This document shows positions 23,231-46,830 of a stretch of DNA of 64,000 nucleotides, one piece after another (position 1 is the first letter of the stretch; each line of letters opens with the position of its first letter). The DNA comes from Candidatus Latescibacterota bacterium. Lineage in GTDB: Bacteria > Latescibacterota > UBA2968 > GCA-2709665. The stretch spans positions 224,001 through 288,000 of the forward strand of contig CAXXJS010000040.1 in the NCBI GenBank assembly GCA_963662665.2, in the 5' to 3' direction. The notes beneath the pieces are model-generated. The model had not been told where the DNA came from and ran no database searches. It saw nothing but the letters and a program-made list of their open reading frames with translations. The position numbers and the translations under genes were made by a program.

Positions 23231-23316
23231 GCGGAAGTGGTGGAATTGGCAGACACGTCAGATTTAGGATCTGGTGGGCAATGCCCGTGGGGGTTCGAAT
23301 CCCCCCTTCCGCACCA
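23231..23316 (+). tRNA. tRNA-Leu (anticodon TAG)
   Basis: GCGGAAG/CTTCCGC acceptor stem, TCAGA-TTTAGGA-TCTGG anticodon arm, long variable arm, GTTCGAATC, encoded CCA. Confidence 0.97.
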
Positions 23317-32020: not shown

Positions 32021-32857
32021 TTACGCCGTCAGACAGAGTCCCCCGTCAGCCGCCGTTTCGACCGGCTCGCCTCTGCCTTTTGACACCAAATTGAACCAGC
32101 ACATTCCAACCAGGACCAGAAAAACGCCGCAGACATGCAGCCACCACGGAAGCATCGTCCCTGTGCTGAAATCATCCAGTGATCCAAAAACCTCCAGGTG
32201 CGTGGACGTCACTATCAGAAAATTGTTCAACGCGTGTCCCACAATCGCTGGAAGCAGTGAACCGGACCGGACGACCCACCATGCGAATACGAGCCCCAGT
32301 ATCAGAGCCGTGGGATATCGCCACGGGTGCAGGTGAGATATAGCGAATAGCAACGCAGACCAGACAATGGCCCGATTCCGCGTTCGGTGAGCCAACAGGC
32401 CGCCCAGTATAACGCCTCTGAAGAGGACTTCCTTTACAAGCGGCGCCTGCACCACCATGGCATAAAACGTGAACATGTACGGCGTCTCTCTTCGTGCCGA
32501 CCCCCCGAACAGGTCTTGCACACTTTCGGGCACCGGTATCAGGTGCCGGAACAGATTTCCCAGGTCCGATCCAACAATTGCCAGTCCGACAACGCACACG
32601 CCGAGCGGCAGGTACAGTTGCCACGAAACGGGCTTGAGCAGCAGGATGTCGGACCACGTCCGGTCCGTTCGACGGTATGCGTACATTGCCGTCAAAATGA
32701 AACTGGCCAGTATCAAGAACTGGATTACGTAGGGACTCTTGAACAAGGGCCGGTCGAGAATGGCGCCAAGAACGCCAAACGGCAAGCCTACCACCATGCT
32801 GAACAGGAAAAACAGCACCACCAGCCAGAAGGATTGCTTTAAATTCGGATACGCCAT
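32021..32857 (-). CDS. CPBP family protein with degenerate EExxxR motif (KEVLFRG)
   Basis: FAISH and HALNN retained; first Glu replaced by Lys. Confidence 0.88.
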   Translation of the reverse strand: MAYPNLKQSFWLVVLFFLFSMVVGLPFGVLGAILDRPLFKSPYVIQFLILASFILTAMYAYRRTDRTWSDILLLKPVSWQLYLPLGVCVVGLAIVGSDLGNLFRHLIPVPESVQDLFGGSARRETPYMFTFYAMVVQAPLVKEVLFRGVILGGLLAHRTRNRAIVWSALLFAISHLHPWRYPTALILGLVFAWWVVRSGSLLPAIVGHALNNFLIVTSTHLEVFGSLDDFSTGTMLPWWLHVCGVFLVLVGMCWFNLVSKGRGEPVETAADGGLCLTA

Positions 32858-33503: not shown

Positions 33504-33720
33504 AAAAAAAATCCCGCATCATCCCCTCGCCATTCGGTGATGAACTTTCCTTCGGCACCCCGATTAAAGGGTGCCGGGCAGTGTCACCACTCACGCAGCT
33601 TTGAGGATGCGGGAAGGTCCTACGTATTCGCCGGGGACAAGGGAGCTACCCCTGCCCCTGAATGTCGGCTATTGTATTCGGTAGGCTACCCGACATACGG
33701 GTCCTGCCCGAGTGGTGACA
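33504..33720 (-). ncRNA. candidate structured non-coding RNA, family not recognised
   Basis: 11-bp closing helix (33710-33720 with 33582-33592), internal hairpins, crossing 9-bp pairing (33606-33614 with 33512-33520), U8 tail, TTGTTT-N17-TATATT just upstream. Confidence 0.55.
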
Positions 33721-33826
33721 ACCGAAATATAATTTCTGTGAATGACAAAAACAAGGGCAAATTTGCTTTTCTACGGAGACGGGTCGATCTGAGAGTAGCG
33801 AGGCCATAGACGCAGGCCACGTTTAA

Positions 33827-34773
33827 CCTTGATTCGCAAGTGCGCCGTGAAAAGGCGCGGAACTTCAGTGGGTGAGAGTCCCACCCGACAGATGTTGCCA
33901 CAGTCGGAAGCAATCGGAGCGGAGACGTAGGTAACGACATCTCCGAAGCCTCCGGTGTAGAGGGTCGCCAGGCGACTCGGCGAGTATGTGGGCTGAAACG
34001 TGAGTAAACGCTGAGCAGGCCTCGAAAAGGGTAATGCGGGAGCCGACCCGGCTTGCGAACGGGGAAGGCCGCCGTCGTTGGGGAAGCAGGCAACGAGAGC
34101 ACCCAACGGTCCCGCCGGGGTAATGGCGGAGGCACGCATACAAGGAGATCCGACGCAACACGGGAAGCCCCAGCGGTGGTGGAGAGCCACCAACCGGAAG
34201 CCCGTGAGGGCCAGGCCGGGCCGTATGGGGTGGCGGACAGGCTCGTAGTACCTGTGATGCCGGGTAACGCCGGCGGAGGAAAGGGGCCTGACTTCGGATG
34301 TGCTTGTGAAGGGGACAACTGTCGGGAGAGTGGCGCAAGCCTATAACCTCCTCCAGAATAAGACGAGGCGACTCCAGATCAAGCTAAGGTTTCAGGTGAA
34401 GCTGTCCGGGCAGATCGGGCAGTGTGTACCTGAAGGCGATGTCCGTCGGAGAGCCGGATGCGGTAACTCCGCACGTCCGGTTCGACGAGCGGGATGTGGA
34501 AACGGAGCAGGGAGGGGCTATTGAGGCACCGCCAGACGAAAGGGGCGGGAACAGACAGGCCACTCCTAAACCACCGCGCCACATCTCGACTCTACTTCTT
34601 CGGGGAAGTAAAACCGAATATATGCAAGTAGATAAAGGCGATTTAACTTCTGATTACCAGGATACACCAGGTCACTGGACGTGGACTGAAAAAACGTCCT
34701 TTTTAACGACCGTTACGCCCCGTTTCAGGGGTTTTCGTCGCGTTGCCGAGTTGCTGTTTTTTTCACATTGAGG
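33827..34773. mobile_element. MITE copy 1 (about 190 bp, CC...GG ends, IS1380-like), interrupted by a group II intron
   Basis: 33827-33839 plus 34596-34773 is near-identical to 46251-46442; TTAA on both sides. Confidence 0.8.
33840..34595 (+). mobile_element. ORF-less group II intron (756 nt)
   Basis: 5' GTGCG; domain V gagccggatgcggtaactccgcacgtccggttc (34451-34483); domain VI ending ctcgactctAC; EBS1 TTGCGA (34053-34058) complementary to exon TCGCAA; no RT ORF. Confidence 0.93.
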
Positions 34774-34891
34774 TTAAGAACTGTATCGCCGTGCGGGTGC
34801 GACAAAGTCACGTCAGAGAAATGATGGTTGCGTCCCGACCACTGAATTTTCGCCATGGCGGAGGGACCCGTCATCGCACCACGCCTCACAT

Positions 34892-35710
34892 CTACTCCCG
34901 GTTCTCCTTCCCGGCTTCCTGAATCGGATACCGTATGTCCGCACGCTGCAACTCACCTTGAAGCCACTGGCTGAACAGCGTGTCGCGAATTTCGCTTATG
35001 ACGCGTTCGTCCAGGGCCGCCGGATATTTCCGCTGAAGCATATACAACGCGAAACCGCCGGACGCCTTCTCAGGTCCGAAGATTTCACCTGACGAGGCCG
35101 CGAAGAGCCGTGCGGAAATCCCCCCCGGCAATTGCGCGCGACGAACGCGCCCCATATATCCGCCGGCCGGTCGGGTCCGCTCATCCTGCGAGAATTCACG
35201 GGCCAGTGCGCAAAAATCGGCCCTTTCTTCCCGCGTCTGGAGCCCGATCTCCTCAATTACCGCTCTTTCCCGGTGGAAAACCCAGCAGACCTCCGCCTCG
35301 TCGAAATCAAGCGTGTGTTGAGCGAAGTATGACTCGACCCGTCCTTCTGCGACTTTTTCAGACAGCATGCGCTCCAGCCGCCTGGCCTGGGCCTCTTCGG
35401 CCACGTCGTCCAGGGCGATCCCTCGCGAAACGAGCCATGCCTGGGTGTCTTCCACCCGTTCCAGGCGATGTCGATACCGCCAATCGTCCACGGCACGCTG
35501 GATGTCTTCGGGCGTCGCGAGAACGCCTTCCCGGACGGCAAGCTGCCGCACCAGTTCTTTGCGTGCGAATTCACCGAAAAAATCGAGTTTGTCCGCAACG
35601 CCCAGTTGACGTACGACCCGTTTGAGCGACACGTCAATGCCATTCACCCGGACCAGCGTTATTTCAAGGGCCGTGGTTGAGGATTCATCTCCCACCTGAT
35701 GCCGCATCAC
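34892..35710 (-). CDS. parvulin (PpiC-type) peptidyl-prolyl isomerase / foldase of the export locus
   Basis: F..LAREFSQD....AGGYMG.V.R..L, GEIFGP; overlaps the hlyD stop. Confidence 0.85.
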   Translation of the reverse strand: MMRHQVGDESSTTALEITLVRVNGIDVSLKRVVRQLGVADKLDFFGEFARKELVRQLAVREGVLATPEDIQRAVDDWRYRHRLERVEDTQAWLVSRGIALDDVAEEAQARRLERMLSEKVAEGRVESYFAQHTLDFDEAEVCWVFHRERAVIEEIGLQTREERADFCALAREFSQDERTRPAGGYMGRVRRAQLPGGISARLFAASSGEIFGPEKASGGFALYMLQRKYPAALDERVISEIRDTLFSQWLQGELQRADIRYPIQEAGKENRE

Positions 35711-45925: not shown

Positions 45926-46250
45926 CTCCCCATGCCCCGACGCATAACTGTCTGGCTTGCAAACGCGGATTATTTTTGAACTGTTGTCAGGTTGCCGTGG
46001 CGCCGCTCGTTCTTGAAAAATGTGTTCCACTTCTCGTTACTAAAACGAAACGATGTTGCATTTTGGACGACGACGAATACACCGTGAAGCATTGCAAAAA
46101 AAAGACACCGGCGACAAGAGCCACCGATGTTCGATCCAATAAGAAACTTCAGATGGGAAATTTCAGCCTACGCTCGGCGGGCAATCTCGCGAAGGGTATC
46201 TGGTCAACAAAACGCAATGTCGACCAGCGAACTACCCGTTAAGAAACTTA

Positions 46251-46442
46251 CCTTGATTCGCAATTCTTCGGGGAAGTAAAACCGAATATATGCAAGTAGA
46301 TAAAGGCGATTTGACTTCGAATTACCAGGATACACCAGGTCACTGGACGTGAACTGAAAAAACGTCCTTTTTTGACGACCGTTACGCCCCGTTTCAGGGG
46401 TTTTCGTCTCGTCGCCGAGTTGCTGTTTTTTTCTAATTGAGG
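46251..46442. mobile_element. MITE copy 2 (192 bp, intron-free allele)
   Basis: ccttgattcgcaa|ttcttcggggaag...aattgagg; direct repeat of copy 1. Confidence 0.8.
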
Positions 46443-46830
46443 CTAAACATTGACTGACGCCAGATTCCGACTGAACCGGCGCCCGGCGAGGTCCGGTTCA
46501 GTTGCTCGACGTCGATTTTCGCCATTCCCGGCATCGCATCCATCACTGCCGATGGATCGCGCTCCTTCAGCTGCGGAACTGCCTGTACTAAAATGGTAAG
46601 GCCCCTCGCTCGACCGTTACGATAATACAATCAAACGTCGCGGGTTGCGTAGACGCAGTCCCGCCAGCGACATCCCGTTACTGTTGCCGAGGTTCGGGGA
46701 TATCGTTAAACTTGGTAAGACTGACACAGAGCAGTCCGCATCGCATTCTTGAAATGAAGCAACGGAGCGACAGCGTCAGGTATCGCATCAGGGACCCTGT
46801 CACGCCACCACACGCAACCCGACGACATCT

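Follow-up and report, generated by a model that had tools for sequence, protein, structure and literature searches.

A group II intron without an open reading frame, inserted in the end of a miniature transposable element of a Latescibacterota genome, and its likely helpers

The window, by which we mean the whole 64,000-nt stretch analysed here from a Candidatus Latescibacterota bacterium, carries at 33840–34595 of the + strand a 756-nt group II intron that has no open reading frame (ORF) and sits 13 nt into the left inverted repeat of a MITE (miniature inverted-repeat transposable element). The original prediction, made from the letters alone, had placed such an arrangement at 33827–34773, and that span proved to be exactly the MITE core. 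On direct reading of 33600–35000, the occupied locus runs ...TTAA CCTTGATTCGCAA|GTGCGCCGTG...CTCGACTCTAC|TTCTTCGGGGAAG..., the intron beginning with GTGCG at 33840 and finishing with CTCTAC at 34595, in keeping with the conserved 5′ GUGYG and 3′ AY termini. Direct reading of 46100–46500 places an uninterrupted counterpart, CCTTGATTCGCAATTCTTCGGGGAAG, from 46251 onwards; removal of 33840–34595 regenerates this uninterrupted junction, as predicted, and the MITE portion 3′ of the intron is 93.99% identical to the empty copy over 183 nt. The features of the locus are as follows.

33823–33826, + strand: left target-site duplication TTAA, with the same TTAA after the right end
33827–33839, + strand: outermost 13 nt of the MITE's left inverted repeat, serving as the 5′ exon of the intron
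33834–33839, + strand: intron-binding site 1 (IBS1), TCGCAA
33826–33830, + strand: IBS2, ACCTT, made of the last duplication base and the first four repeat bases
33840–34595, + strand: ORF-less group II intron of 756 nt, present in eight genome copies with 0–2 differences
33866–34003, + strand: domain I segment matching Rfam group-II-D1D4-4 (89.7 bits)
34028–34032, + strand: proposed exon-binding site 2 (EBS2), AGGGT, pairing with exon positions −14 to −10
34053–34058, + strand: EBS1, TTGCGA, in a 9-nt loop
34290–34445, + strand: domain IV remnant after ORF loss, conserved in the ORF-less copies of genomes G003, G008, G009 and G011
34451–34483, + strand: domain V catalytic hairpin with a 2-nt bulge
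34487–34592, + strand: expanded domain VI (about 106 nt), in which A 34589 is bulged
34596–34773, + strand: remainder of the MITE, which forms the 3′ exon and ends in the right inverted repeat ...CACATTGAGG
34774–34777, + strand: right target-site duplication TTAA
46251–46442, + strand: unoccupied MITE copy whose target, ACCTT..TCGCAA|TT, is perfect, with CTTA on its left (46247–46250) and CTAA on its right (46443–46446)

The Rfam model RF02003 (group-II-D1D4-4) matched 33866–34003 with 89.7 bits against a gathering score of 49 (E 2e-18). The model of domains V and VI, RF00029, matched 34449–34595 in a permissive scan with 35.7 bits, short of the gathering score of 40 owing to an insert of about 85 nt in the domain VI loop; the end of the model fell exactly on 34595. 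In the fold of the last 147 nt of the intron (−67.9 kcal/mol, z = −5.1; none of 200 shuffles was as stable), domain V takes up 33 nt and has a 2-nt bulge, and domain VI is long. A single A, 34589, bulges from the basal stem of domain VI, 7 nt short of the 3′ splice site, and this stem covaries among relatives (ATGTGG/CCACAT, GTCTGG/CCAGAC, AGGTGG/CCACCT).

No reverse transcriptase (RT) ORF was found in the intron: the longest + strand ORF wholly inside it encodes 97 amino acids (aa) and a 115-aa + strand ORF starts in the intron and extends into the MITE, none of these having been scanned against a protein family library. The flanking long ORFs, at 32021–32857 and 34892–35710, are both on the minus strand. 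The intron would be intergenic and antisense to its neighbours, acting as a retroelement that is probably dispensable for the expression of any gene.

EBS1 is a perfect complement (6/6) of the exon end TCGCAA, as had been claimed from the sequence of this copy. The 9-nt EBS1 loop varies together with the 5′ exon in full-length relatives from other genomes, where the EBS1/exon pairs are CATGGAT/ATCCATG, TGAATT/AATTCA, TGAATA/TATTCA and TTTGAGA/TCTCAAA; because the same loop changes with the exon in these relatives, the match is not due to chance. Over 49 introns, 269 of 294 positions (91%) pair with exon positions −6 to −1, against a shuffled mean of 134 (46%) and a maximum of 161 in 2000 shuffles, figures to be read with the knowledge that the introns in this test and in that for EBS2 are kin, so that shuffles overstate independence. 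In the register −7 to −2, only 39% of positions are paired. EBS2, the five bases that follow CUCGAAA, pairs with ACCTT at −14 to −10 over 5/5 positions, including one G-U. Its covariation is weaker, with 194 of 295 positions (66%) paired over 59 introns, as compared with a shuffled mean of 129 (44%), a shuffled maximum of 153 and 41–50% in adjacent registers. A blind 6-mer search for EBS2 gave no consistent column, and its position emerged only once the layout of the RmInt2 intron was known.

The repeat that the intron interrupts is about 191–196 bp long, has no ORF and was hit 77 times by blastn in the genome, 56 times at near full length. Its conserved block starts with CCTTGATTCG and ends with CGAATTGGGG, which are imperfect inverted repeats; when the left end TTAACCTTGATTCG is set by eye against the reverse-complemented right end TTAGCCCCAATTCG in the consensus, 10 of 14 positions agree. 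The target duplication is of 4 bp, with the consensus YTAA: identical 4-mers stand on both sides of 35 of the 56 copies (CTAA in 16, TTAA in 10, TTCA in three, and CCAA, CGAA, TCAA, CTTA, GTAA and TAGA in one each), and the occupied window copy has TTAA at 33823–33826 and 34774–34777. The fourth flank base is shared in 35 of the 37 copies with identical 3-mers (shuffle mean 17.2; none of 10,000 shuffles reached 35), and the fifth agrees in only 10 of 56. The family is present in 13 of the 14 other genomes of the genus, in none of seven from the family's other genera and in none of 19 from the sister family. Size, lack of an ORF, copy number, imperfect terminal inverted repeats and 4-bp duplication uphold the label MITE structurally. 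By parting the 13 outer bases from the rest, the intron would be expected to disable this end of the element. Some MITEs stand head to tail and share one target duplication (contig C9:10020–10323, C36:43133–43446, C30:42475–42736 and C61:175179–175361), forming tandem or nested insertions into each other's ends.

No autonomous parent with the MITE's own ends was found in the 92% complete draft genome. Candidates from a scan for inverted end pairs were rejected because their ORFs were, judged by eye, not transposases, and an IS5-like fragment at a contig start was set aside for its unrelated ends; a T-rich MITE hairpin suspected of being a terminator was not called by a terminator scan and was dropped. 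'CC' ends with a 4-bp duplication fit what we take to be the traits of the IS1380 family of insertion sequences (IS). The genome holds 15 full-length, near-identical copies of a 1704-bp IS1380-family element (PF13701, 518–521 bits, 479-aa frame), besides two further partial or weaker PF13701 matches. This element makes a 4-bp NTAR duplication, the same as that of the MITE, and in our own comparison its ends, TCTGAATAATTCA and CCTGACCTATTCA, agree with the MITE ends at only 6 of 13 bases. One of the 15 copies lies just upstream of the window, at approximately 221151–222854 of contig C40, and the 14 others elsewhere; in a sister genome, the left end of this element is the natural target type of related introns (locus L011).

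These results could be taken to mean that the repeat is some other dispersed intergenic sequence, not a transposon derivative, and that 'MITE' is a misnomer. The search for a parent yielded only non-transposase ORFs, the 15-copy element has different ends (6/13 shared) and the inverted repeats are imperfect (10/14, by eye). We regard this as very unlikely, since the duplicated flank bases change in step on the two sides over exactly four positions and no further, the repeat is both high-copy and restricted to the genus (13/14 other genomes of the genus and 0/26 genomes of other genera), and relatives of the intron occupy the same 13-nt offset in bona fide IS ends.

The window's genome (G000) is an assembly of 66 contigs, 92% complete with 5.4% contamination, and shares its genus with Candidatus Latescibacterota metagenome-assembled genomes (MAGs). 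It contains eight copies of the 756-nt intron, at least 99.87% identical, with 0–2 base differences. All eight stand at the identical MITE position, after ...CCTTGATTCGC[A/T]A and before the MITE interior, and none lies in an unrelated target. Their host MITEs (13 + 183 nt) differ by 8–31 of 196 nt, with identities of 84–96% and a mean of 90.5%. Near-identical introns in diverged MITEs must therefore have arrived separately and recently in pre-existing MITE copies. The pattern indicates independent retrohoming, not hitch-hiking on the MITE.

Of 72 recognisable MITE left ends, 62 are empty and 10 are occupied. Left ends reading TCGCAA are occupied in six cases and empty in 11; those reading TCGCTA are occupied in two and empty in one; both TCGATT ends are occupied, in each case by a full-length intron, and all 50 ends with other hexamers are empty. 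The ORF-less intron is thus found in 8 of 20 TCGCAA or TCGCTA sites and in 0 of 50 sites with other hexamers: site choice tracks the EBS1 match. At the equivalent place the right-hand MITE repeat reads TCGAAA, and it is never occupied in this genome. A fragment of about 260 nt from the 5′ part of a more distant group II intron lies at C5:13690–13948 on the minus strand (RF02003, 67.7 bits); it is 78% identical to the window's intron, lacks domain V and an ORF, and is a dead remnant.

The intron is always found within the same element, and the many MITE copies provide some 180 nt of 3′-side homology, so that one might picture passive multiplication at the DNA level, through transposition of an intron-bearing MITE or gene conversion between MITEs, with no reverse transcription. 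This is highly improbable. The host MITEs are far more diverged (8–31/196 nt) than the introns (0–2/756 nt), and the occupied ones form no near-identical subfamily; the copy on contig C23 diverges as early as base three of the 3′ exon, and its flanks were therefore not co-converted; the 5′ side offers only 13 nt of homology; and the choice of site follows the complement of EBS1.

Three full-length relatives of 1975 nt are present in the same genome (L001, C61:80849–82823; L002, C24:8271–10245; L003, C16:124183–126157), an outcome for which the original prediction had recommended a search. They are 95% identical to the ORF-less form over intron positions 1–450 and 96% over 606–756. Each has an intact, stop-free ORF of 441 aa that matches TIGR04416 with 354–356 bits against a cut-off of 300, and in Pfam terms consists of RVT_1 (E 2.7e-36) and GIIM (E 2.4e-13), with no endonuclease (En) domain; a YADD motif is visible in the translation. 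TIGR04416 matches occur in the genome only in these three copies, which hold the sole genes for a group II intron-encoded protein (IEP) found there. The best match to the IEP among PDB sequences is the GsI-IIC RT (E 1e-53), a ranking that reflects only which structures have been solved. On this evidence, the RT/maturases of the three relatives are likely helpers for the ORF-less copies, all eight of which probably borrow their enzyme. The closest IEPs elsewhere, with 86–90% identity, are in two complete Candidatus Latescibacterota MAG chromosomes of the same genus. The site of L002 is rearranged (C24:7973–10290): a truncated MITE in reverse orientation stands upstream, followed by a 13-nt MITE left end and the intron, and about 20 nt further on by an inverted copy of the same left end (CGAATCAAGGTTAA).

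The complete 756-nt ORF-less form, with its domain IV remnant, is also present in other species of the genus. G008 has one copy (97% identity), G003 at least 15 (89–92%), G011 about six (79–88%; loci L103–L106, L111 and L113) and G009 three, two of them full-length (86–89%) and one truncated (84%); partial ORF-less copies occur in further genomes. Comparison of 20 ORF-less copies from other species together with their flanks revealed differing EBS1 loops that match their own exons. In G011, TGACGA faces the exon TCGTCA in the same MITE site; in G008, TTTCGA faces TCGAAA at a TTAGCCTCAATTCGAAA| end, the other repeat type; in G003 and G011, CATGGAT faces ATCCATG in the ATCCTGTnnATCCATG repeat; and in G003, TGTCAG faces CTGACA in a third repeat. 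Since these loops differ and yet match their own exons, the deletion is old and the lineage has been actively retargeted through changes of its guide sequence. Four of the G011 copies (L103, L106, L111 and L113) carry extra palindromic inserts of about 27–33 nt in three different intron loops; these are GC-rich hairpins of the CCTGCCTGCG...CGGCAGGCAGG type and look like a third layer of nested small repeats.

In a tree of domains I–III (D1–D3), the full-length introns of the window's genome group with its ORF-less intron and that of G008 with 100/100 support, and stand apart from those of other species. The rows for ORF-less introns fall into more than one group, and the starred branches force at least two changes. 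The topology suggests an exchange of sequence between ORF-less and full-length forms.

The reading that we favour, with a probability of roughly 80%, is that the element is a non-autonomous group II intron spreading by retrohoming into MITE ends via an RT/maturase made elsewhere, likely the resident 441-aa IEP. It is a ribozyme that has both exon-binding sites, domain V and a domain VI with a branch point, and it has no RT gene of its own. The spliced intron RNA, bound by the borrowed RT/maturase, would reverse-splice into DNA at ACCTT-N3-TCGCAA, where the target duplication joins the first 13 nt of the left repeat of a MITE of about 191 bp and IS1380-like build, and the inserted RNA would then be copied into DNA. 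The likeliest donor of the enzyme would be the 441-aa RT and maturase that the three resident 1975-nt relatives encode; since it has no endonuclease domain, replication forks would have to provide the primers, which is how other En-less introns are primed. Our results show the identity and boundaries of the intron, the covariation of EBS1 and EBS2, the near-identical copies in diverged MITEs, the choice of sites and the intact IEP genes. Binding and mobilisation of the ORF-less RNA by the resident IEPs, and splicing of the intron in vivo, are inferred steps.

Several results weigh against this scheme. The first concerns domain IV, which is the usual region of IEP binding. Its 5′ side is only 48/73 identical to domain IV of the full-length introns, and its 3′ side does not align; at the former start codon the full-length introns read ATG and the ORF-less form GCA. 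The ORF-less domain IV is no simple deletion form of the resident full-length copies. The remnant measures about 155 nt, not the 120 or so first estimated, and the proposed IEP-like relic NKTRRLQIKL stands only in part: there is DNA homology around the former start codon, while as a peptide it agrees with DKVRKLRMTL, at the N-terminus of the IEP, at 4 of 10 residues, and its frame is broken by stops in sister copies from other species.

Second, the EBS1 loops of the three full-length copies do not match their own 5′ exons: those on C61 and C24 read TTTTGG beside TCGATT, and that on C16 reads AATCGA beside TCGGAA. They fit each other's exons, AATCGA pairing perfectly with TCGATT. A chimeric assembly across a stretch of 211 identical nt would account for this, as would a real exchange between copies, and the counts, two against one, are ill-fitting for a simple swap. 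The mismatch therefore puts in question either the assembly or the mobility of the full-length copies themselves, and the source genome is only a 66-contig draft of the completeness and contamination given above.

Third, G011, a single contig that is 99% complete, has at least six ORF-less copies and no IEP match at E 1e-10 or better; its best TIGR04416 match is an RT of 72 bits, below the cut-off of 300. No group II IEP was found in G008 either. The ORF-less copies of G011 imply that the lineage can persist without a resident helper.

Finally, contigs of four of the 24 listed sequencing runs, X5 and X6 (taken as DNA) and X15 and X17 (RNA), contain no spliced joint 33839>34596 (CCTTGATTCGCAA-TTCTTCGG). 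RNA contigs match parts of the intron at only 90–95% and hence come from relatives; one spans the ORF-less-specific 34326–34471. They show neither transcription nor splicing of the window copy. Contigs of X5 and X6 cross each junction by 14–30 letters, with 0–2 other letters, which is under our 31-letter bridging rule, and lend weak independent support to the junctions.

Some of these observations could also be explained if the eight copies were the frozen product of a past burst and the intron were now immobile, its diverged domain IV no longer recognised or its true helper lost. The divergence of domain IV between the two forms and the IEP-less genomes G011 and G008 speak for this, and PMC4424553 treats IEP-less introns as having lost their retromobility. 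We think it unlikely: with 0–2 differences among eight copies, any burst must have been very recent, intact IEP genes are present beside ribozyme arms that are 95% identical, and the D1–D3 grouping (100/100) suggests ongoing exchange between both forms. We continue to favour retrohoming into MITE ends with an enzyme supplied in trans. The original prediction is confirmed as an observation and supported in its interpretation: copies and occupancy, helper genes and the structure of the MITE all speak for it.

The choice of a transposon end as target extends to the wider clade of the intron. We assembled 58 full-length relatives with a defined 5′ junction, from many phyla and with 55 distinct exons. 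TAG or TAA occupies −16 to −14 in 25 of the 55 exons and starts at −15 in eight more, other registers giving 0–2. Of the 43 loci whose downstream sequence was long enough, 11 repeat the 13-nt exon end in inverted form with no more than one mismatch, as compared with one for a control 13-mer from 30 nt upstream; the inverted copy is usually then followed by the same CTAG, TTAG or TAG. The elements so enclosed measure 26 bp, 150–255 bp, about 0.9–1.1 kb and 1.7 kb. One of 893 bp encodes DUF4096 and DDE_Tnp_1 proteins and is therefore of IS4/IS5 type; the ends of the 1.7-kb element are 12/13 identical to those of the IS1380-family element of the window's genome. Homing about 13 nt inside transposon ends thus characterises the clade, of which the window holds an ORF-less, MITE-directed version. 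A metatranscriptome contig of run X17 contains a 90–95% relative of the intron preceded by ...CTCCTAGCCTGATTAATTC, a transposon-end-like target after CTAG.

A broader and more speculative proposal, which we hold only tentatively, is that of a cross-phylum guild. A distinct En-less clade (D1D4-4 type, expanded domain VI) would use EBS2 and IEP contacts to read the junction between flank and transposon (NTAR duplication plus 'CC...' end) of IS1380-like elements and MITEs, systematically splitting the transposase-binding end 13 nt in; its ORF-less derivatives would persist across speciation, swap sequence with helpers and survive without a group II RT. Such a guild would imply either that helpers are resupplied from outside or that the introns are retained as a brake that cripples the transposon end.

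An ORF-less intron that homes into MITE ends is of an already documented type, a parasite living on a parasite. To our knowledge, a proliferating ORF-less lineage has been well worked out in only one cyanobacterium, and the lineage of the window is a second, phylogenetically distant example. It provides a clean natural experiment: one genome has eight fresh insertions and 62 targets left empty, other species of the genus have retargeted sister copies, and one complete genome has the lineage and lacks a helper. One intron clade, spread over many phyla, widely shows the homing into transposon end-repeats that has been documented for RmInt2. If the intron does inactivate the repeat that it splits, a retroelement would be restraining a DNA transposon. 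For annotation, elements of this kind explain 'oversized' MITE copies, and they can break short-read assemblies. Elsewhere in the window, 23231–23313 holds a tRNA gene whose extra arm is long (Rfam tRNA, 57.6 bits).

In the literature that we searched, which includes a passage search of PMC6053426 and leaves earlier sources and supplements outside its scope, there is no report of a group II intron inside a MITE, and a prior description is possible. A MITE that lies within a group I intron, the converse situation, has been described (PMC4853749). According to PMC4424553, ORF-less introns are a rarity in bacteria and are found almost without exception alongside related introns that encode an IEP. 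The same source has class C (IIC) introns inserting after terminator hairpins or into attC sites. Set against that description, the window's lineage resembles class C in being En-less and in choosing non-coding, repeated, structured DNA motifs, not genes; it differs in its full-size domain I, in having a 6-nt EBS1 as well as EBS2, and in inserting inside a repeat arm, not after a hairpin. The class D (IIB3) trait of RT and X domains without D/En is seen in the 441-aa IEP, with RVT_1 and GIIM as its only Pfam domains.

The closest precedent for the ORF-less lineage is TeI3 of Thermosynechococcus elongatus, whose ORF-less introns are mobilised in trans by the IEPs of TeI4 'driver' introns (Mohr, Ghanem and Lambowitz, 2010; PMC2882425). 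The two cases are alike in several ways: each is a bacterial ORF-less lineage that apparently derives from one deletion and keeps remnants around the former ORF start, its ORF-less copies outnumber ORF-containing relatives while related IEP genes are present in the same genome, and its families have diversified through EBS changes, most copies having good EBS/IBS pairing. Unlike TeI3, the lineage described here belongs to another phylum (a Latescibacterota-type MAG) and to another intron type, marked by an IEP of 441 aa without En, by the Rfam D1D4-4 type and by its expanded domain VI; its targets are transposon end-repeats, its mobilisation in trans is something that we infer, and one genome of the window's genus has ORF-less copies without any IEP.

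For the choice of target, the nearest known system is RmInt2 of Sinorhizobium meliloti, which homes into both inverted repeats of ISRm17 (PMC4615759) and selects CTAGTTC at −16 to −10, with a 2-nt linker before IBS1 (PMC4615759, PMC5894124). The likeness extends to an En-less IEP, a target inside a transposon inverted repeat and nearly the same geometry, with IBS2 at about −14 to −10 and a short linker to IBS1; CTAG/T at −16 to −13 in RmInt2 compares with TAG/TAA at −16 to −14 in 25 of the 55 clade exons. The clade would be at most a possible member of class D: the IEP of the window's genome is only 34% and 30–42% identical to its matches on pSymA of S. meliloti 1021, whose RNAs hit RF01999 or no D1–D4 model, not RF02003. 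RmInt2 has its own ORF and a full IS as target; the intron of the window, unlike it, is ORF-less, lies in a MITE and carries an EBS1 that matches only the left end.

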